Under the pieces are notes generated by a model that was given only the letters and a program-made list of their open reading frames with translations, did not search any database and was not told where the DNA came from. Shown piece by piece: positions 11,153-28,248 of a DNA stretch of 28,359 nucleotides; the first letter of the stretch is position 1; each line of letters opens with the position of its first letter. A program made the position numbers and the translations under genes. This DNA comes from a virus: the UHGV virus genome UHGV-0141068. The stretch is one strand, 5' to 3'.

Positions 11153-11612
11153 TTACCACCCCGCCAGCCTCTTTGAATCGGGCAATCAGGTCACCGATTT
11201 TATGTTCATACTGACCGTAACCAGCGCCCGGCAGTGAAGCCCAGATATTGCTGCAACGATCGATAGCCTGACGAATATCGCCGCGATCAATCATCGGTAA
11301 AGCGCCACGCTCTTTAATCTGCTGCAATGCCACAGCATCCTGGCTTTTTGGAGAGAAGTCTTTCAGCCCAAGCTGCTTGCGGTAAGCATCCCACCAGCGT
11401 GAAAGAAGTTGATAACGGCCTGCAGCTGTTGATTTGAGTTTGGGGTTTAGCGTGACAAGTTTGCGAGGGTGATCGGAGTAATCAGTGAAGAGTTCACCAC
11501 CGACAATAATATCATAACCGTGGTTACGTGTCGGTTGTCGCCCGTTATCCGTTCCTTCTGACCATGCCACCATATCGAGGAAAGCTTTACGCTGAGGATT
11601 AAGATTTTGCAT
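11136..11612 (-). CDS. R: lambda R-type endolysin (lytic transglycosylase)
   Basis: 158 aa; NQRKAFLDM.AWSEGTDNGRQ.TRNHGYDVIVGGELFTDYSDHPRK region matches lambda R as recalled. Confidence 0.9.
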   Translation of the reverse strand: MQNLNPQRKAFLDMVAWSEGTDNGRQPTRNHGYDIIVGGELFTDYSDHPRKLVTLNPKLKSTAAGRYQLLSRWWDAYRKQLGLKDFSPKSQDAVALQQIKERGALPMIDRGDIRQAIDRCSNIWASLPGAGYGQYEHKIGDLIARFKEAGGVVNEVEL

Positions 11613-12003
11613 TTTTCACCCCTGTCAGTCGTTCCCAGAAGTACGTCAGTGCAACCGAACCCATCGCACCACTAATCCCCGCTGTCGCGAGAATCATGTA
11701 AATACTGAATCCACTTTCGATGCTGATCAGGCCACCAATAACACCGGTGAATCCTGATACCACTATCTGAGCCAGAGCATTTATCCAACACCACGTTGCT
11801 TTACTCTGCTTCACATCTATCAGGTAGCGGACCAGACCGCCCCAACCTGCGATGATCAGCAAAACGAGCCAGAACGCTCCAGCAAGATTCTCTTTTTCGT
11901 GCATATGAATAGCCGCAGTTTCGCCTCCGACAGAAAATCGGAGCGTGAAATGATATGTTGATTTATTATTAATTCGAAAATTACATTCTAATTCATCAGG
12001 CAT
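11599..12003 (-). CDS. putative holin (start codon uncertain)
   Basis: Three hydrophobic helices immediately upstream of and overlapping the endolysin gene; N-terminal 33 codons are AT-rich and lack an RBS, so real start may be Met at 11904. Confidence 0.55.
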   Translation of the reverse strand: MPDELECNFRINNKSTYHFTLRFSVGGETAAIHMHEKENLAGAFWLVLLIIAGWGGLVRYLIDVKQSKATWCWINALAQIVVSGFTGVIGGLISIESGFSIYMILATAGISGAMGSVALTYFWERLTGVKNAKS

Positions 12004-12055: not shown

Positions 12056-12391
12056 TTATTTTACATCCCAAGGTAGTTCCTCAAGAGAGAAGACTAATTC
12101 ATTATCAATGATTTCGTATTCTGCATAACCTTCAACCTCTCCTGAGAAGTTATTGTCAACGCATCCTTCATAATAGCTATATGGTGCTATAAAGTGAAAC
12201 CCATATTCATCTATCTCTGTGATTTCAAAATTGTAGTAATCGTAAGAATATCGAATATCATCATCAGAAATAGAACTAAGTACATAGTTATTAAATTTAT
12301 CGGAATGCTTAACGATAAGCTCTGACAACGCGTCAAGATTCTCTGGAGAGATATTTCCTAACGGTAATCTGTACTCAACGGCATTAATCAT
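12056..12391 (-). CDS. highly acidic Tyr-rich hypothetical protein (moron between Q and holin)
   Basis: 111 aa, about 24 Asp/Glu versus 5 Lys/Arg, 12 Tyr; strong RBS AAGGAGG; AT-rich; first gene downstream of tR'. Confidence 0.55.
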   Translation of the reverse strand: MINAVEYRLPLGNISPENLDALSELIVKHSDKFNNYVLSSISDDDIRYSYDYYNFEITEIDEYGFHFIAPYSYYEGCVDNNFSGEVEGYAEYEIIDNELVFSLEELPWDVK

Positions 12392-12576: not shown

Positions 12577-13329
12577 TTATCTCGTCACCTTTCTCAATTG
12601 CGTTTCAGCATATGCTTCTTCCTGCCAGCACTTTGTTACTAGTTTATCAATTACGTCTGCATATCCTTTGTACCACTGATAATCAGTCAGGTCTGGAACC
12701 AGCTTCTGGACATGACGTCGTGCCAGTGTAGTTGGTAAACGGCTAAACCGGTTTCCATTGCAACGCCCACAAATCTTATAAACAGGCGTGCCATGAAGCC
12801 GGGTCCTTTTTTCATCCAGGACAATACCTTTACCCTTACACCCTCTGCACGCTGTGCTGACTTCTCCCTTACCATGACAATGCTGACATAGTTCCTTCAC
12901 CCACTCTTCCTTGATAACAGATTCCCCGCTTCTGGAGTGTTTCACCACCTCGCGCAATACATTATGAAATCCAGTACCAGCACAATGCTCACAGCGAGCC
13001 TTACTTGCCGCAGACCTGGAATAATCAGCAAAGGCAAAATTCACAAGGTAAGGAATGATCTGTAGCCGGGTTTCTTCACTCAATTTATTCAATGTCGGGT
13101 TATCCAGTGCCATCGCGTAATTGAGCAGACCTTCAATCGCAAACTGAGGATCCTGAACACCAACTTTTGCCAGGAATAAGGCAAACCCAAGCGGTGCTTT
13201 CGACTGCACCATCCCCTGCGCAGCCATCACATCCGTAATCGTTAAACCACCAGAGCCTGTCGCCGGTGCGTCATCGCTCAGTTTTGGAGATTTCGGGGAG
13301 TAATATTTCGGTAAGGCTTCAAGGTTCAT
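12577..13329 (-). CDS. late antiterminator Q (Qin QuuQ-like type)
   Basis: 250 aa with four CxxCxGxG zinc-finger-like repeats; followed by promoter and terminator as expected for Q. Confidence 0.7.
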   Translation of the reverse strand: MNLEALPKYYSPKSPKLSDDAPATGSGGLTITDVMAAQGMVQSKAPLGFALFLAKVGVQDPQFAIEGLLNYAMALDNPTLNKLSEETRLQIIPYLVNFAFADYSRSAASKARCEHCAGTGFHNVLREVVKHSRSGESVIKEEWVKELCQHCHGKGEVSTACRGCKGKGIVLDEKRTRLHGTPVYKICGRCNGNRFSRLPTTLARRHVQKLVPDLTDYQWYKGYADVIDKLVTKCWQEEAYAETQLRKVTR

Positions 13330-19097: not shown

Positions 19098-19187
19098 ACA
19101 ATATGTACCTCCGATGTACATATTACATGATTGAAATGAACCTTCAAGATACTTGTACCTTAACGGTACAAGGGTTTTAATTTCGTT
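19098..19187. promoter_or_regulatory. OR-type operator/promoter region between cro-like and cI genes
   Basis: Two inverted repeats with GTAC cores: ATATGTAC-N7-GTACATAT (19101-19123) and CTTGTACC-N5-GGTACAAG (19152-19172); minus-strand PR candidate -35 TTGAAG (19147..19142), -10 TAATAT (19125..19120). Confidence 0.65.
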
Positions 19188-19862
19188 ATGAAAACAATCC
19201 ATGACATCCGGCGGTCTAACGCCAGAAAACTGAGAGATGGTGTTGGCGGGAATTCTTCCTTTGCCACTATGATTGATCGCGAGCCAACCCAGACCAGCAG
19301 GTTTATGGGAGATGGTGCTACTAAAAATATCGGTGACAGCATGGCACGACACATCGAAAAATGTTTCGACCTGCCTGTCGGATGGCTCGATCAAGAACAC
19401 CAGACAACGAACATCACAAAAAAACCTGATGTTTCAATCACTAATAAACAAATCACATTAGTCCCTGTCATATCATGGGTACAGGCCGGAGCATGGAAAG
19501 AAGTTGGATATTCTGAGGTTGATTTGAGCACAGCAGAAACGTATCCCTGCCCTGTCCCCTGTGGGGAAATGACTTATATCTTGCGGGTGATAGGTGATTC
19601 AATGATTGATGAGTACCGCCCGGGAGACATGATTTTTGTCGATCCTGAAGTACCTGCCTGCCACGGTGACGACGTTATTGCATTGATGCACGATACAGGT
19701 GAAACCACCTTCAAAAGGTTGATAGAAGATGGGACACAGCGTTATCTCAAAGCGTTAAACCCAAACTGGCCTGAGCCTTACATTAAGATCAACGGTAATT
19801 GCTCTATAATTGGTACAGTGATTTTCTCAGGAAAACCAAGAAGATACAAAATCAAAGCCTAA
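19188..19862 (+). CDS. CI-type prophage repressor with LexA/S24-like autocleavage domain
   Basis: 224 aa; C-terminal half (ISWVQAGAW, GDSM, FKRL, LNPNWP) is the S24 peptidase fold shared with lambda CI; no SD upstream, consistent with leaderless translation. Confidence 0.85.
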   Translation: MKTIHDIRRSNARKLRDGVGGNSSFATMIDREPTQTSRFMGDGATKNIGDSMARHIEKCFDLPVGWLDQEHQTTNITKKPDVSITNKQITLVPVISWVQAGAWKEVGYSEVDLSTAETYPCPVPCGEMTYILRVIGDSMIDEYRPGDMIFVDPEVPACHGDDVIALMHDTGETTFKRLIEDGTQRYLKALNPNWPEPYIKINGNCSIIGTVIFSGKPRRYKIKA

Positions 19863-19874
19863 TCAATGTTTATG

Positions 19875-19897
19875 AACCTGCTTCGGCAGGTTTTTTT
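19875..19897 (+). terminator. rho-independent terminator after cI
   Basis: AACCTGC-TTCG-GCAGGTT hairpin followed by T7. Confidence 0.75.
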
Positions 19898-19901
19898 ATA
19901 C

Positions 19902-19934
19902 TTGACAATGTACCTTTGAGATACATAATGTACC
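19902..19934 (+). promoter_or_regulatory. PL-like early-left promoter with operator half-sites
   Basis: TTGACA (19902-19907), 16-bp spacer, CATAAT (19924-19929); ATGTACC repeated at 19908-19914 and 19928-19934, same core as OR sites. Confidence 0.6.
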
Positions 19935-20034
19935 CAAGAGAAACAACAAACAGGCAGGACGTCCACGAAGTAGCCGCCTGGGGCATATGAAGTCCAAGAT
20001 GATTCGTTAGCAACAAAACGCCCATAGGACGCTT

Positions 20035-20053
20035 CGCTCTTTAACAATTTGAA
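20035..20053 (+). promoter_or_regulatory. boxA-like antitermination element (nutL-like)
   Basis: CGCTCTTTAACAATTTGAA, near-identical to the rrn boxA core GCTCTTTAACAATTT as recalled, about 110 nt downstream of PL. Confidence 0.55.
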
Positions 20054-20351
20054 TATTTTCAGCGTCAATGATCTGTTTAGCTCCCTACAAGTAAATGTAG
20101 CGTAGCACCATGATAAATCCTGCTAGTGTTTAGTTAAAAATCGCGCGAGAGCAAGAACGACGTGAGGGCAGGCAATATTGATAGTGTTATTGCTATTAGT
20201 TTATCAAAAATATTTAGACGACCCAGATGAATATTTTTAATACATACTCCCCCTAATTTAACAGGAGTAAATGTTGATGAATAACGAGACATCTATACTC
20301 AACAATTGTATGATATGAACAATTATATAACATAATGTAGGAAAAATAAAA

Positions 20352-20948
20352 ATGGATTGGCATGACCTTATATCAAAGGTAATTATCGGACTTGTTACAG
20401 GCTCAATCGCAGCTTACTTAACTGCGCGATATGCACTCGGCCGTTATTATAAAGAAAAATGGTGGGACAAAAGAATAGATTTGTATACGCAATTAGTTGA
20501 CTGTGTTTATCTTCTAAAAAACACAGCTGACTATTGGTATAAACATGAGTTACATCACGCTTCACAATTCCCAACCTACTTTAGTTACAAATCAAAAGAA
20601 GAAAATGAAATCCTTAGCAAATCTTTCTCTAATGAGCTTGAAAAACTCAGTAGAATAGGTGAGCTATCTTCATTATTCTTAACAGAAGAGTGTGGGGATA
20701 AAATCCGTTCATTCATTGAAAATGAAGAAAATCTATTTATACAATGGGAGTTTGATAGTATAGAGTTGATAGATGCCCACAAGTCAAGACTTGATAAATT
20801 AAAAGTATTACTAGACGATATTATCTCTGAAGCAAAGAGAGAGCTTAAGGTCAATAAAAAACATAACAGCCTAAAGAATATAAAGTGGTCCATAACTATG
20901 CCAGACCAAAAAAATGATGAGCCAATTAATTATTACGACAATCATTAA
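20352..20948 (+). CDS. membrane-anchored hypothetical protein (moron in early-left region)
   Basis: 198 aa, single N-terminal hydrophobic helix (VIIGLVTGSIAAYLTARYALG) then charged helical domain; markedly AT-rich; own terminator. Confidence 0.6.
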   Translation: MDWHDLISKVIIGLVTGSIAAYLTARYALGRYYKEKWWDKRIDLYTQLVDCVYLLKNTADYWYKHELHHASQFPTYFSYKSKEENEILSKSFSNELEKLSRIGELSSLFLTEECGDKIRSFIENEENLFIQWEFDSIELIDAHKSRLDKLKVLLDDIISEAKRELKVNKKHNSLKNIKWSITMPDQKNDEPINYYDNH

Positions 20949-20958
20949 AACACTTTAG

Positions 20959-20980
20959 AACCCGCTGGGCGGGTTTTATT
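20959..20980 (+). terminator. rho-independent terminator
   Basis: AACCCGC-TGG-GCGGGTT followed by TTTTATT, 11 nt after the stop codon. Confidence 0.7.
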
Positions 20981-21135
20981 CAAATATACTTTGCACATCA
21001 CAAATAAAACTATAACGTCCTTCTTCTTTTCCTAATATCTTATATCTACTTATTTATAAGCGGCTTACAGATCTTCAACAGATAAACCTAATGAAGGCGA
21101 CAATGTTCTGATGAATAGCCACCTTTTTACTCAAC

Positions 21136-21258
21136 TGAAAGCGCGTTCTGTCCCTTGTCATTAAGTGCCAGTTCGTTAAGTCCAAAACCTCCGGAACGCG
21201 CTTTCAATTGAGTGGGGAAAATAACTGGCGATGGCAGCCGCCCGTTGCACTAAGTGCC
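21136..21258. promoter_or_regulatory. structured intergenic element of unknown function
   Basis: 12-13 bp inverted repeat GAAAGCGCGTTC / GAACGCGCTTTC (21137-21148, 21194-21205) enclosing TTAAGTGCC-type direct repeats (21159-21169, 21176-21183, 21248-21258). Confidence 0.4.
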
Positions 21259-21370
21259 TCTGGATGGGGCATTTACTGAAACGAAACCAAAACTTTTAAT
21301 CGCCTTATGGCGAGGGATTCGTGCAACCAAAAATCGTGCGGTGCAGCGCACCAATTAAGGAGAACTAACG

Positions 21371-22565: not shown

Positions 22566-22915
22566 TGGAACCATACAGCCTCACGCTAGATGAGGCCTGT
22601 CATTTTCTCAAGATATCCAGACCGACTGCCATTAACTGGATACGCACAGGGCGTCTGCAGGCAACACGCAAAGATCCCACTAAGAATAAATCTCCTTACC
22701 TCACAACACGACAAGCCTGCATTGCGGCGCTTCAGTCTCCGCTGCATACTGTCCAGGTGAGCGCGGGTGATGGCATAACAGAGGAAAGAAAATGTCACTC
22801 TTCCGCAGAGGTGAAATATGGTACGCCAGTTTCACATTGCCGAACGGTAAAAGATTTAAACAGTCTCTTGGAACAAAGGACAAAAGGCAGGCGACAGAAC
22901 TCCATGACAAGCTAA
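22565..22915 (+). CDS. xis: excisionase (P22 Xis-like, AlpA-type HTH)
   Basis: 116 aa from ATG 22565; [36 protein letters not shown]; 3' end overlaps integrase start. Confidence 0.8.
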
Positions 22916-23955
22916 AGGCTGAAGCATGGCGGGTCAGCAAACTTGGTGAAATTCCTGATATAACGTTCGAGGAAGCGTGTGTCAGGTGGCTTGAAGAGAA
23001 AGCACATAAAAAATCACTGGACGATGACAAAAGCCGGATCGGATTCTGGCTTCAACATTTCGCAGGAATGCAACTAAGAGACATTACTGAATCAAAAATT
23101 TATTCAGCAATGCAGAAAATGACGAACCGGCGTCATGAGGAAAACTGGAAACTCAGGGCAGAAGCATGCAGAAAAAAAGGGAAACCTGTTCCAGAATACA
23201 CGCCAAAACCAGCGTCCGTTGCAACGAAGGCTACGCATCTTTCATTTATAAAGGCCCTGCTAAGAGCCGCAGAGCGTGAATGGAAAATGCTGGATAAGGC
23301 ACCAATTATTAAAGTGCCTCAACCAAAGAATAAACGGATCCGCTGGCTGGAGCCTCATGAAGCACAAAGGCTGATTGATGAATGTCCGGAGCCATTAAAG
23401 TCTGTTGTTGAATTTGCACTTGCAACAGGCTTAAGACGCTCGAACATCATCAACCTTGAATGGCAACAAATAGACATGCAGCGCCGGGTGGCATGGATAA
23501 ACCCGGAAGAGAGTAAATCAAACCGCGCAATTGGCGTTGCGCTGAATGATACTGCATGTCGCGTATTGAAAAAACAAATCGGGAATCATCACCGTTGGGT
23601 ATTTGTGTATAAGGAAAGCTGTACCAAACCAGACGGAACGAAAGCGCCAACAGTCAGGAAGATGCGGTATGACGCAAACATAGCCTGGAAAGCGGCGCTG
23701 AGACGAGCAGGTATTGATGATTTCAGATTTCACGACTTGAGACACACCTGGGCAAGTTGGCTGGTTCAAGCCGGAGTCCCGTTATCAGTGTTACAGGAAA
23801 TGGGAGGCTGGGAGTCTATCGAAATGGTTCGTCGATATGCTCACCTCGCACCTAATCACCTTACCGAACACGCACGGCAAATAGACTCGATTCTGAACCC
23901 ATCGGTCCCAAATTTGTCCCAGTCAAGAAATAAGGAAGGTACTAATGATGTGTAA
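22792..23955 (+). CDS. int: tyrosine integrase, P22-type
   Basis: 387 aa; [15 protein letters not shown]-terminus and C-terminal R...HxxR...Y catalytic region (HDLRHTWAS...MVRRYAHL); adjacent to tRNA-Thr-derived att core. Confidence 0.9.
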
Positions 23956-24201: not shown

Positions 24202-25521
24202 ATGGCGCTTTCAAGACAAAAACTAACCTTCGAACGAATTCGAAGATTTACTTTACCTGAAGGGAAAAACCAAGTTTTCCTTTGGGATACGGACGTAACA
24301 AGCTTGGCATGTCGAGCAACTCGTGGAGCAAAAGCCTTTGTATTCCAAAGCCTGTATGCGGGAAAAACCCTTCGCATGACCATTGGCAACATTAACGATT
24401 GGAGGATTGATGATGCGAGGGCCGAAGCCAGGCGACTGCAAACATTAATCGATACTGGGATAGATCCGCGTATAGCTAAGGCGGAAAAAATTGCTGAAGC
24501 GGAATCACAGCAGGCTGAATCTCGTAAAACGAAGGCAACCTTTTCAAGCGCTTGGGAAGATTATCTTGATGAATTGAGAACCGGAATCAGCGCAAAAACT
24601 AAACGCCCCTACTCTGCACGCTACATTGCCGATCACGTTAACTTGTCCAGTCGTGGAGGCGAAAGTAAAAAAAGAGGCCGGGGCCCAACCTCACCTGGGC
24701 CACTGGCTAGCCTGCTCGACCGACCATTATCAGAACTAACACCAGAGAACATTGCCGAATGGCTAAGTACAGAGAGACAAAATCGGCCTACCGTCACTGC
24801 TCATGCCTACCGTCTGTTGCGTGCATTCATCAAATGGGCTAATTACCAGAAAAAATATCAGGGAATAATCGATGGCGATCTTGCACAAGATCATAACGTG
24901 AGAAAAATGGTTCCAATATCAGCGAGCAAAGCGGGAGATTGCTTACAAAAAGAACAGCTCAAAAGCTGGTTCAGTGCCGTGCGTAGCCTCAATAATCCCA
25001 TTGCATCAGCCTATCTCCAAGTGCTTTTGCTCACCGGTGCACGGCGTGAAGAAATTTCCTCACTTCGCTGGTCTGACATAGATTTCAAATGGTCAAGCAT
25101 GAGAATTAAAGACAAGATCGAAGGCGAGCGAATTATCCCCCTCACTCCCTATGTTTCTGACTTGTTACGCTCACTGATGGAGATCCCCAATCGTGGTACA
25201 AACGAGGAGAATTGGGTTTTCAGAAGTAACAGCAAAAGTGGCAAAATTATTGAACCGCGTTCAGCACATAATAGAGCATTAACTCGCGCGGAGTTACCAC
25301 ATATCAGCTTGCACGGATTGCGCCGTAGTTTTGGGACCCTCGCTGAATGGGTCGAAGTACCAACAGGTATTGTTGCGCAGATTATGGGCCATAAGCCTAG
25401 CGCTCTTGCTGAAAAGCACTATCGCCGCCGTCCATTAGATTTGCTAAGAAAATGGCATGAAAAAGTTGAATTATGGATCTTAGAAGAAGCAAAAATAAAA
25501 AACAACGTTGATAAGCGTTGA
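24202..25521 (+). CDS. tyrosine integrase, P4 type
   Basis: 439 aa; N-terminal arm-binding-like region, C-terminal catalytic R..HGLRRS..Y region (LHGLRRSFGT, HY near the end). Confidence 0.85.
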   Translation: MALSRQKLTFERIRRFTLPEGKNQVFLWDTDVTSLACRATRGAKAFVFQSLYAGKTLRMTIGNINDWRIDDARAEARRLQTLIDTGIDPRIAKAEKIAEAESQQAESRKTKATFSSAWEDYLDELRTGISAKTKRPYSARYIADHVNLSSRGGESKKRGRGPTSPGPLASLLDRPLSELTPENIAEWLSTERQNRPTVTAHAYRLLRAFIKWANYQKKYQGIIDGDLAQDHNVRKMVPISASKAGDCLQKEQLKSWFSAVRSLNNPIASAYLQVLLLTGARREEISSLRWSDIDFKWSSMRIKDKIEGERIIPLTPYVSDLLRSLMEIPNRGTNEENWVFRSNSKSGKIIEPRSAHNRALTRAELPHISLHGLRRSFGTLAEWVEVPTGIVAQIMGHKPSALAEKHYRRRPLDLLRKWHEKVELWILEEAKIKNNVDKR

Positions 25522-25635
25522 TTTTATCAAATATCAACAACTTACATAAAATCACATGTGTTGACAGAAATTTTTTTTCAGTTATCTTTTATTACTGCTA
25601 ACTACATTCACTCACTAAGCAGGAGATTAACTACA

Positions 25636-26061
25636 GTGACTAACCCAATAACTGTATCAAGAGAAGACCGAAGTGCGGAAATCAGAGCGAGATGGGGTTT
25701 ACATCCGACTAAAAACAAAAGTTCTAATTTTTGGGAAACAACAATTCAGCGTTTTAATAATAGTAGTACTGACCGAATACTACCTCTTTGGCACCGTGTT
25801 TCAAAACTTTTAGTTGCTATTAGGAATGTAGTCAATACTATAACATGCCTTTTTCCACCAAAGGGGAATACTTCCCGCTCACGCCGAAGTTCAACAACGT
25901 CATCAAAAAACTCATCATCATCTTCATCGGATGGTAGTAGTAGCGACCCCGATCCCGATAGAGACCCCATATTCACCCCTTTTCATTTCATTCTTTCATC
26001 TCTGTTAAAAACAATGATCGTCTTATTTGCCCACATATCAAATGTTGGGGTGATGAAATGA
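25636..26061 (+). CDS. Ser-rich hypothetical protein with hydrophobic C-terminus
   Basis: GTG at 25636 with AGGAG RBS 10 nt upstream; low-complexity S/D stretch; stop overlaps AlpA-like start; candidate -35 TTGACA at 25561. Confidence 0.35.
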   Translation: MTNPITVSREDRSAEIRARWGLHPTKNKSSNFWETTIQRFNNSSTDRILPLWHRVSKLLVAIRNVVNTITCLFPPKGNTSRSRRSSTTSSKNSSSSSSDGSSSDPDPDRDPIFTPFHFILSSLLKTMIVLFAHISNVGVMK

Positions 26062-26279
26062 GCGATATCAAACATCAAAAACCCTCTCAGTCACAACTAA
26101 TTTCTACCCGCGAGTTAGCTAATATTATTGGCTATGAAGTACAAACTATTCGAGCTTGGCTTTGCAAAGACAAACTGCCTAATGGTTTACCGCGACCGAA
26201 GAAAATTAAAAACCGACACTATTGGTCACGTAAAGACATTGATAGATACCTATTAACCTTCTCAGTATATAGTAACTAA
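26058..26279 (+). CDS. AlpA-family HTH regulator / excisionase-like
   Basis: 73 aa; LISTRELANIIGYEVQTIRAWLCKDKLP HTH typical of AlpA/Vis-type proteins. Confidence 0.7.
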   Translation: MSDIKHQKPSQSQLISTRELANIIGYEVQTIRAWLCKDKLPNGLPRPKKIKNRHYWSRKDIDRYLLTFSVYSN

Positions 26280-26290
26280 TAGAGGCCTCC

Positions 26291-26316
26291 CCCGGCTATT
26301 CTAAAGAATAGCCGGG
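26291..26316 (+). other. perfect 11-bp palindrome (terminator-like hairpin or operator)
   Basis: CCCGGCTATTC-TAAA-GAATAGCCGGG between AlpA-like and RHH-protein genes; weak T-tract. Confidence 0.5.
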
Positions 26317-26401
26317 TTAGTTAATACAAACCTTCCATTAACAATGGGGGGAGATTAATACTATTTATCACATCTCACATTAACAAAATTCAAGGTCACA
26401 T

Positions 26402-27166
26402 ATGAAAAAACGCATCACTTTCAGCGTAAACAATAGTTCTACTATTGATGCAATTGACGACTATAGCAATGCAAAAGGATACTCCAGGTCAGAGGTGATA
26501 TCATTTTTATTAAACGCCACAGTCCCAGCATTGAATAAAATAACATCGCAATATCATATAGCTCAAACTTTGGAGTCAACATTAGGCTGTATTTTTGAAG
26601 AGAAGGTCCCGTCAATAGCACGGGGGGAGCCAAAATTAACTTACGAAGAGTTTTTTCATTCCGTCTGGAACACTCACATTCGACACCGGAACGAGGTTGT
26701 CGATCAAGATTTTTATGCGCACAAAATACCTCATGATAAGATGGGTAAGAGCGAAAAAAAATTAATTCATGAAAAGCTCTCATACATTATAAAAAGTTTC
26801 AATGTAAAAAAAGCAATTTTTATTTACACAGATCGGCGCGTGAACCACAAACATCTCATTGCAGGAGGGTTATCTAATATCATACTGATAAAGGAAACAG
26901 TCTACGATGGTTGTTTTTTTGATTTGAGCAGCATTGTGATTATGCCAATCTTTGAACTTATTACATTTGGAGTTGAAGCAGTATTGAAAAGAAATAAAAC
27001 TCCCCCTAAACAATCATGCTATTGCTGGATACCAATTTATTACACAAATGATCTAGCGGTAATGGTCCCTGTGATTGCCGAAGGCGATACACCTCAAAAG
27101 GCGATGAAAGGAGGAGATGCCATCATTATTAACCCCTTTAACGGTGAAGTAAGCCATACTTTCTGA
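26402..27166 (+). CDS. RHH-domain fusion protein of unknown function
   Basis: 254 aa; N-terminus (KKRITFSVNNSSTIDAIDDYSNAKGYSRSEVISFLL) looks like a ribbon-helix-helix; about 200-aa C-terminal domain unrecognised; AT-rich. Confidence 0.55.
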   Translation: MKKRITFSVNNSSTIDAIDDYSNAKGYSRSEVISFLLNATVPALNKITSQYHIAQTLESTLGCIFEEKVPSIARGEPKLTYEEFFHSVWNTHIRHRNEVVDQDFYAHKIPHDKMGKSEKKLIHEKLSYIIKSFNVKKAIFIYTDRRVNHKHLIAGGLSNIILIKETVYDGCFFDLSSIVIMPIFELITFGVEAVLKRNKTPPKQSCYCWIPIYYTNDLAVMVPVIAEGDTPQKAMKGGDAIIINPFNGEVSHTF

Positions 27167-27248
27167 TACCAATGTTAAGCATAACCACTTAGTTGCATAC
27201 ATCTCGACAGTATGGAGTTAGTACCTAATAGCTTGATGAGGGTAAAAG

Positions 27249-27425
27249 ATGCCTACTAACAAAGCAAAATCAAAGAAAATTCTAGGAAGGCCTGAAGGAA
27301 GTAAATATTCCCATTTAATTCAGAGTGAGAAGGCTAAGCATTACTCTCAATCCAAGGTGGCAAAGATCTTAGGAATAAGTATTTCCACGGTAAAAAGACA
27401 CTGGGATAACGGCATCTTTGGGTGA
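27249..27425 (+). CDS. small HTH protein
   Basis: 58-aa ORF below ORF-track cutoff; GAGGG RBS 7 nt upstream; SKVAKILGISISTVKRHW helix-turn-helix. Confidence 0.45.
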   Translation: MPTNKAKSKKILGRPEGSKYSHLIQSEKAKHYSQSKVAKILGISISTVKRHWDNGIFG

Positions 27426-27627
27426 TTATAATTGCAGAGTTGCTTTTTAATTATTTTACTGCATGGGTAATGGGTTGATAACAAGTTTTATTGTTGGAAA
27501 GGTATTATATAACAGTCATTACTATTAATAGTTAATTAATATAACTAACCACAGACATTCAGCTATGTCTGATCATATTACTATATACGGCTATCCAAAG
27601 CCGTAGGGCTAACGACAGGATCGAAAC

Positions 27628-28248
27628 ATGGAATTATATCATGGTTCCCATGGTGAGCATGTGCTCGCCTATAAAAAACATATTGAACGAGTCGTCAATG
27701 ATGCTATCAGTGAATTCCCCAGAACAATGGCGTTACGTGTTGATGTTCATTATCCACCCATTTTAGACAGAGGTGACACTGTTTGCTGTTTTCCTAATCT
27801 AGAGCCTGGTGCCATATCCCGTTTCCGTAATGCATTAAATGCCATGTTGGAGGCCAATGAGAGAACCAGAGCAGCTAACGGCAAAAGAATATATCCAAAC
27901 CGTGTTCGTCATGTTTGGGCACGGGAGTTTTCCGAAGAAGGAAAATGTCACTTTCACCTTGGTCTTTTTTTTAACAAAGATGCTTATTACCATTTAGGTG
28001 ATTATGAGGCTGAAAGAAATTTAAGGATGATGATTGTAAGAGCATGGTATAGCGCACTGGGATTGGAACTGGATGATTATCCGGGATTGGTTCACTACCC
28101 TGAAAATTGTCGTTATATTTTAGACGTCAATGATTTTAACTTTGAAGGAGAATACAATAAATTACTGAATCGTCTCGACTACCTAGCTAAACTCGATACA
28201 AAAGCATATGGAGATGGCGACCGTAGCTTCGGCTGCAGTCGCGGGTAA
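27628..28248 (+). CDS. YagK/YfjJ-family protein
   Basis: 206 aa; family typical of CP4-type cryptic elements, assigned from memory of conserved regions. Confidence 0.55.
   Translation: MELYHGSHGEHVLAYKKHIERVVNDAISEFPRTMALRVDVHYPPILDRGDTVCCFPNLEPGAISRFRNALNAMLEANERTRAANGKRIYPNRVRHVWAREFSEEGKCHFHLGLFFNKDAYYHLGDYEAERNLRMMIVRAWYSALGLELDDYPGLVHYPENCRYILDVNDFNFEGEYNKLLNRLDYLAKLDTKAYGDGDRSFGCSRG

Follow-up and report, generated by a model that had tools for sequence, protein, structure and literature searches.

The genes rexAB, sieB and sieA provide prophage-expressed exclusion of other phages from positions near the immunity region, and RexB, SieA and SieB contain hydrophobic segments. Two other small proteins act on infection through the membrane: Csx28, an accessory protein of type VI-B2 CRISPR-Cas (clustered regularly interspaced short palindromic repeats) systems, oligomerises into a pore of eight subunits, by which the membrane is depolarised during infection (10.1101/2021.11.02.466367), and PdpSau, the product of a Staphylococcus aureus prophage accessory gene, causes abortive infection with altered membrane potential and permeability (PMC10127798). 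Here we describe a gene of 198 amino acids (aa) located at 20352-20948 on the plus strand of the UHGV virus genome UHGV-0141068, a stretch of 28,359 nucleotides (nt) that is referred to below as the window and that contains an SfV/e14-like Escherichia coli prophage. It is firmly established that this is a real gene under purifying selection, that its product is a membrane-anchored four-helix bundle, that the phage can do without it, that it is horizontally mobile, and that it is packed into a self-contained cassette in a variable slot of the prophage. Exclusion or abortive infection of other phages is a possible function for it, although one that we put somewhat short of probable.

The reality of the gene is supported by the open reading frame (ORF) call itself, by the length of its homologues, by substitution rates and by the alignment and structural model described below. 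The ORF starts with ATG, and a Shine-Dalgarno-like AGGA can be read 9 nt upstream of it (20339-20342). At a guanine plus cytosine (GC) content of 33.5%, stops make up about 7.4% of random codons and the chance of 198 open codons is about 2.5e-7. Homologues at 52-84% identity keep the ORF length unchanged, with a ratio of nonsynonymous to synonymous substitution rates (dN/dS) of 0.13-0.16 and synonymous sites near saturation. GC content is 0.32-0.36 over 20001-21200, as against 0.43-0.50 in the flanking prophage genes and 0.50-0.60 farther out; the gene itself has a GC of 0.335 (0.31 at third codon positions), and its homologues all fall at 0.31-0.34. Directly after the stop codon lies an intrinsic terminator of the cassette (20956-20985, plus strand), made of a hairpin at 20956-20978 with a GC core at 20960-20974 and a tail that is T-rich in the DNA and U-rich in the transcript. 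The folding energy of this hairpin is -13.6 kcal/mol (z -4.0), none of 200 shuffled sequences was equally stable, and a Raoultella homologue (L004) is trailed by a near-identical hairpin and T run.

The protein belongs to a defined family. Its residues 1-185 match PHROG 17948, a family of function unknown, over the whole profile (1-185 of 185; E 6.1e-95). The sole Pfam match was WxLIP_PGBD at 15.8 bits, under the cut-off of 27.3, and nothing in Pfam was consistent across 71 family members; the window protein had no match in NCBIfam or in PADLOC 2.0, which covers models published up to 2023, and the 71 members gave scattered weak PADLOC matches. A word-indexed search of 5.8 billion proteins returned only 10 clusters, all of them enterobacterial, while a profile search of 1.84 billion cluster representatives returned 366 proteins at E up to 1e-3, nearly all of 150-200 aa, matched over their full length and free of fused domains. 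No paper on the protein was found in the literature, either by accession or by concept.

In the alignment of 71 sequences, a short N-terminus and one hydrophobic helix precede a variable helical body. Two stretches stand out: a juxtamembrane consensus L-x-R-F-Y-x-E-K-W-W-E-K-K, which is nearly invariant (G-R-Y-Y-K-E-K-W-W-D-K-R at residues 30-41 of the window protein, with E35, W37 and W38), and A-K-K-x-L-K at the end of the last helix (L165 in the window protein). The most hydrophobic 19-residue window covers residues 6-24 (Kyte-Doolittle score 1.71), and no second hydrophobic segment is present. AlphaFold2 run with the 71-sequence alignment gave a confident model (predicted local distance difference test, pLDDT, 89.5; predicted template modelling score 0.74), whereas the model built with 8 close homologues only was poor (pLDDT 64.6). 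Its helices cover residues 3-70, 82-104, 112-133 and 139-164, the first of which crosses the membrane and continues into the four-helix bundle, so that the protein can be divided into a membrane helix (about 6-29), the juxtamembrane motif (30-41), the bundle (42-167) and a disordered tail (168-198) that ends in YYDNH. Because the chain runs up and down through such a bundle, helix 4 should end close to where helix 1 begins, and the conserved E-K-W-W and A-K-K-x-L-K patches should therefore meet in the model at its membrane-proximal end.

The N-terminal tail of the family has a median of 5 residues, with a mean of 0.27 Lys/Arg and 1.1 Asp/Glu, and the 15 residues after the helix hold 4.1 Lys/Arg. 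Lys and Arg are more frequent after the helix than before it in 71 of 71 members, and 0 of 71 have a second hydrophobic segment. From this bias and the positive-inside rule we infer an N-out/C-in orientation, in which the bundle is predicted to be cytoplasmic. As a separate observation, the tail at 168-198 (20853-20945) is a trait of the enterobacterial clade, and most of the distant relatives are without it; it is disordered, rich in Lys and Asn and ends in a conserved aromatic-acidic motif, YY(D/H)N(H/Y/F), with Y194 invariant, and it may be a docking peptide.

An earlier note on this stretch, made from the letters alone, had described an AT-rich 198-aa ORF with a single N-terminal transmembrane-like helix and a helical body, downstream of a leftward promoter (PL) and closed by its own terminator. 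All of these features stand, on the evidence of start codon, constraint, homologue length, composition, hydropathy, the AlphaFold2 model, the hairpin, and a promoter with two operators at 19902-19945. The label of orphan gene given in the same note does not, in view of the PHROG match and of the wider family of about 366 cluster representatives.

In lambdoid phages, a moron is a promoter-gene-terminator unit that is present in one phage and missing from its relatives. The AT-rich cargo cassette that carries the 198-aa gene (about 20196-21121, plus strand) shows the patchy presence among related prophages, the deviant base composition and the terminator of such a unit, and a promoter-like site at 20286-20314, conserved with the gene, is a putative promoter of its own; the term denotes a class of genetic insert and says nothing on function. 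A 1.5-kb query covering the ORF and its flanks (19860-21370) is 100% identical to chromosomal sequence of ECONIH4, E7476, CX04-CX21 and others, and megablast of this query against 5426 complete E. coli genomes found the whole stretch in 16 of them, several being serial isolates. The flanks (19860-20056 and 21122-21369) are far more widespread, with some match in 1544 genomes. The extent of the cargo follows from the point near 20198 at which similarity to other loci with the same nutL leader stops. Elsewhere the same slot holds SfV orf33 with its own terminator, a reversed 242-aa gene, a reversed 171-aa gene, a BRCT-domain gene or a RelA/SpoT gene, the prophages with other cargo being SfV, PhiR29_1, 504239, MB07152 and TST3. 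Since near-identical prophages lack the gene or carry unrelated genes in its place, it is dispensable for the phage. In its close homologues the gene always follows an S24 repressor gene, of differing type, on the same strand and before the early-left genes. A partner or antitoxin gene within the cassette was considered and rejected, as no small ORF is conserved across four cassettes and no neighbour family is common to the loci.

Upstream of the cassette, the best promoter match of the region lies on the plus strand at 19902-19929 (TTGACA at 19902-19907, a 16-nt spacer and CATAAT at 19924-19929; 11 of 12 consensus positions). One operator, OL1 (19909-19925), lies within its spacer and another, OL2 (19929-19945), just past the -10 hexamer, and by its sequence the whole element (19902-19945) is the repressor-controlled PL. 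The operator motif TGTACC-N5-GRTACA is also present in three copies in the right operator region OR (19104-19120, 19137-19153 and 19154-19170), between the cro-like and the repressor genes. All nine matches to the motif in the window, in which several sites are counted on both strands, fall at OR or OL, against a mean of 2.4 in shuffled sequence, and the motif, with three copies at OR and two at OL, is the predicted determinant of the immunity specificity of this ymfK-type repressor.

Downstream of PL, but still in the prophage backbone and outside the cargo, is a leader element of the phi80 nutL type with a boxA (20033-20198, plus strand). The boxA consensus CGCTCTTTAACAA is matched exactly at 20035-20047, and boxA together with the next ~150 nt recurs at 70-77% identity before different first genes in other prophages and phages, among them the phi80 prophage of TOP10 (a 98-aa gene), MB07152 (the RelA/SpoT gene), E2855 (a Rha gene), Stx2a phages and HK225. 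In phi80 this stretch is annotated as 'nutL regulatory signal' and the 98-aa gene as N (GenBank M11919). The copy in the window is the most diverged and most AT-rich of those compared, and RNAalifold on 7 copies predicted 39 base pairs, 11 of them with compensatory change. No homologue of the phi80-, lambda- or P22-type N was found in the window and related loci, and SfV orf33 was rejected as an N-like antiterminator, being acidic and devoid of an arginine-rich motif. In Rfam (E up to 1) the leader matched no known RNA besides one chance match to a long non-coding RNA.

Within the cassette, a sigma-70 promoter-like site precedes the gene (GAGACA at 20286-20291, a 17-nt spacer and TATGAT at 20309-20314, plus strand; 9 of 12 consensus positions). 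The blocks AGACAT and GTAT(G/A)(A/G)T and their spacing are kept in 4 of 4 cassettes, which encode proteins of only 52-73% identity and show saturation at synonymous sites, and they are absent before the other cargo genes that follow the same nutL. This conservation is the best available evidence that the element is the gene's own putative promoter, with a predicted start near 20321. Since PL is repressed in a lysogen, the position of the gene behind it points to expression that follows induction, unless the inner promoter should be active as well; the terminator of the cassette would block early-left transcription unless this is antiterminated. The 420-nt leader that the earlier note had called untranslated indeed holds no plus-strand ORF of at least 25 aa between PL and the start codon, but it is not featureless, for it contains the OL operators, boxA, nutL and the second promoter-like site.

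Relatives of the gene are spread over many phages and bacteria. In IMG/VR, 136 contigs encode a confirmed relative, and among the best 80 of these 136 loci 18 place it after an S24 repressor gene, 18 before xis/int and 21 after a MuF gene, with 23 left unclassified by the markers used; the gene lies 53-85 nt after MuF and 72-127 nt before xis. Distant relatives are found just before the excisionase and integrase genes in phages CobraSix and OS31, and between a MuF-like head gene and the scaffold gene in prophages of Proteus, Enterobacter, Kluyvera, Leclercia and Tatumella. The latter form a diverged branch with a fixed place in the head-morphogenesis operon of these SPP1-like prophages, 53-85 nt after the MuF-like gene (L104-L107, L023, L043, L060 and L081, and L149-L189 from IMG/VR), which is odd for a membrane protein. 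Species-representative genomes gave 86 confirmed loci, spanning Enterobacterales to Desulfobacterota, Verrucomicrobiota, Planctomycetota, Bacteroidota, Chloroflexota and others. Besides phage genes, immediate neighbours of relatives include GajA/GajB, BrxL, AriA, KwaB, a type III restriction enzyme, mad3 and TmtA; a Serratia island has a relative alongside YbcO and a TIR_2 gene, and on plasmid pYR7 one lies near HEPN-associated and restriction genes. No partner gene is conserved across the family loci. In Salmonella enterica strain s1 a 170-aa member (L017, 7986-8498) is inserted by itself between ycgN and dsbB, both of them core genes, with no phage gene among the five flanking genes scanned, and overall the family is far commoner in phage contexts than as chromosomal singletons.

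The surrounding prophage can be read from the annotated copy in ECONIH4, with which Pfam and PHROG scans of the window are consistent. The minus strand carries the genes for tail, head, lysis, the Q-type antiterminator and replication; a cro-like YdaS gene comes next, and the plus strand then has, in this order, the LexA/S24 repressor gene (ymfK-like), the 198-aa ORF, an HD hydrolase gene, a DUF551 gene, a small gene, excisionase and integrase. In the window the cI-type repressor gene occupies 19188-19862, on the same strand as the ORF (Peptidase_S24, E 1.5e-26; phrog_4 transcriptional repressor, E 1.7e-49); its counterparts in identical E. coli prophages are annotated as ymfK or LexA family protein. 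Its intrinsic terminator (19874-19900, plus strand; -11.6 kcal/mol, z -4.0, then a T run) corresponds to an annotated terminator in SfV. The ECONIH4 prophage has an ISSpu7-family insertion sequence after the DUF551-like gene (L001, 22487-24097), and the copy in the window is uninterrupted.

Two further features of the window deserve mention. A second AT-rich insert (12056-12391, minus strand; GC 0.34-0.39) encodes an acidic protein of 111 aa, with no function assigned, and has the genes for holin (11599-12003) and the Q-type antiterminator (12577-13329) on either side; toxin genes of Stx phages are found between these two kinds of gene. The prophage integrase gene (22792-23955) is immediately followed by a second integrative element (24202-28248), all of whose ORFs are AT-rich: a P4-type integrase (24202-25521), a small AlpA-like ORF (26058-26279), a 254-aa ORF (26402-27166) and an inovirus Gp2-family ORF (27628-28248). 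This element looks like a tandem island at the attachment site of the prophage.

Regarding function, we tentatively propose that the gene is moron cargo inserted just after PL/nutL of an SfV/e14-like prophage, whose product would be a small inner-membrane protein that exposes a short acidic N-terminus on the outer side, crosses the membrane with one helix and has its bundle in the cytoplasm, where the conserved E-K-W-W motif may hold it against the membrane. In the lysogen it would be transcribed from its own promoter-like site (20286-20314), with read-through from PL after induction, and the protein, needing no partner, would counter superinfecting phages from the cytoplasmic side of the membrane. 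It would most likely do so by a trigger-dependent self-assembly that perturbs or depolarises the membrane, following the logic of abortive infection by analogy with the Csx28 pore or with AbiP/PdpSau; alternatively, the protein might act in the manner of Sie proteins and block the entry of the genome or an early step linked to the membrane. Expression in the lysogen, the anti-phage activity and the pore or oligomer step are, like the orientation in the membrane, inferred. From context and by analogy, a role in exclusion or defence appears reasonable, and of the explanations considered it is the most economical. One occupant of the same slot points in this direction, as the 357-aa RelA/SpoT-domain protein of MB07152 (L093, 4026-5099) matches PDC-S33, which PADLOC lists as a single-gene defence candidate, at E 1e-92. 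The proposal of an exclusion-gene candidate in the earlier note thus keeps the moron anatomy, the variable slot and the relatives in temperate phages or near defence genes on its side, but homology to SieB, RexB, SieA or Sie2009 is not among its supports, and the PADLOC check that it had recommended yielded no match for the protein.

Several results weigh against an anti-phage role. Sequence, profile and structure searches gave no sequence or fold link to a validated defence or exclusion protein or to a solved structure. Among the 10 other cargo proteins in or adjoining the slot that were run through PADLOC, 1 had a strong match, 2 weak ones and 7 none. Control genes six positions away from the relatives, which include restriction-modification methyltransferases, mad2, a two-transmembrane effector of the CBASS (cyclic oligonucleotide-based antiphage signalling system) type and NsnA, were as rich in PADLOC matches as the immediate neighbours, many of these matches being methyltransferases, so that the association is one of co-occurrence with defence genes and not a measured enrichment. 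The inner promoter is a 9 of 12 match to the consensus in AT-rich DNA. Finally, the tight placement of relatives in lytic operons and the position of the gene as the first on the PL transcript fit the phage's own cycle equally well. A broader version of the anti-phage proposal, in which the whole family would be a stand-alone, scattered abortive-infection effector whose bundle senses the phage and forms a depolarising pore with neither CRISPR nor partner, from three slots in temperate phages, seems to us improbable.

The main rival explanation, which we regard as somewhat unlikely, is that the gene may be an accessory of the phage's own induction or lytic programme, transcribed from PL and acting on a membrane-associated target of the host such as a protease, the division machinery or a transporter, with no part in defence against other phages. 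The early-left genes cIII and Kil of lambda act on host targets in this manner, and the position of the gene directly after a repressor-controlled PL and nutL, the co-directional relatives with very short gaps in early-left operons before xis/int and in head operons, and the predominance of phage contexts over chromosomal singletons would all agree with it. It is harder to reconcile with the absence or replacement of the gene in near-identical prophages, with the presence of a separate terminator and of a promoter-like site that is conserved, which one would not usually expect in a mere member of an operon, and with the members found outside prophages, beside defence genes and between ycgN and dsbB.

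The moron anatomy and patchy distribution, a membrane anchor in a protein devoid of an enzymatic domain and the Salmonella singleton between core genes could also belong to prophage cargo unrelated to phages, that is, to a lysogenic-conversion or host-fitness factor for membrane homeostasis or stress tolerance. We give this little probability, since the protein has neither the signal peptide nor the lipobox or surface domain typical of conversion factors, its bulk is predicted to be cytoplasmic, and a family thinly scattered on mobile elements of many phyla looks more like conflict genes than like genes for housekeeping or stress. A counter-defence protein that shields the phage or the induced prophage from a membrane-associated defence of the host is very unlikely: an early-left position suited to immediate expression, the co-location with defence genes in some genomes and the small size with no catalytic motif speak for it, but copies in defence-rich chromosomal regions and in late head operons would be unusual for anti-defence genes, and structure searches showed no similarity to known anti-defence proteins. 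A non-functional or chance ORF in acquired AT-rich DNA, for which the absence of a family annotation anywhere might be adduced, is effectively refuted by a length improbable at this composition, the dN/dS, the motifs conserved in 71 diverse sequences and the confident AlphaFold model.

As an uncharacterised cargo gene the locus is, soundly observed, an ordinary find for prophage biology, which gains somewhat in usefulness from the definition of its family, the confident model of its fold and the mapping of its regulatory region. Should the exclusion or abortive-infection role prove right, a compact, partner-free family of membrane effectors, marked by E-K-W-W and a confident fold model and with about 366 representatives in many phyla, would be added to the defence repertoire, and the segment after nutL in SfV/e14-like prophages would become a place to mine for further cargo; should it prove wrong, the gene would be one more uncharacterised accessory gene of prophages. 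The map of the immunity region (OR, OL/PL, boxA/nutL, inner promoter and terminator) is useful to anyone testing the gene.

The comparison with described systems can begin with the classical exclusion proteins, which were rejected as homologues by profile comparison (hhalign probability at most 1.2%). RexB of lambda scored 0.6%, and rexAB is a two-gene unit co-transcribed with cI and located between cI and PL, a layout that is not matched by a solitary gene downstream of the cI terminator, PL/OL and nutL. SieB of lambda and of P22 scored 0.16% and 0.23%, and the sieB gene lies beyond N on the opposite strand; SieA of P22 scored 1.2%, on hydrophobic residues only, and its gene has another location in the genome. 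Being the first gene behind nutL, the ORF occupies the place that N has in lambda and phi80, and not that of rexAB or sieB, so that the assignment to a sieB/rex-type exclusion slot in the earlier note has to be abandoned. Alike in position is Sie2009 of the lactococcal phage Tuc2009 (P335 phages), a 172-aa protein with an N-terminal anchor whose gene lies on the repressor strand between repressor and integrase. The likeness is one of position and layout only, that of a small anchored protein between these two genes, for the hhalign probability is 1.0% and the anchor of Sie2009 is followed by a linker rich in Ser, Thr, Gly and Lys and then by sequence unlike the charged helical body described here.

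AbiP of Lactococcus and PdpSau share with our gene a single-gene organisation on a prophage or plasmid and an N-terminal membrane anchor followed by a cytoplasmic domain. That domain is of the oligonucleotide/oligosaccharide-binding (OB) fold type and binds nucleic acid, whereas the present protein is all-helical, and no search revealed sequence similarity. Csx28 (tm_HEPN in PADLOC) did not emerge as a homologue either: the window protein has no match to the tm_HEPN model, 2 of 71 family members match it at E about 0.0085, Csx28 chains are absent from the PDB profile matches at E up to 10, and Cas13b or CRISPR-Cas genes are absent among the most frequent neighbour families (68 members) and in the prophage of the window. 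In architecture, and in architecture only, Csx28 is nevertheless alike, having one N-terminal membrane helix, a cytoplasmic four-helix bundle, no other domain, and 177 aa as compared to 153-203 aa in the family. By this analogy Csx28 would be the closest analogue of the 198-aa protein, and together with PdpSau and AbiP it provides the precedents that make such a layout plausible for an anti-phage role.

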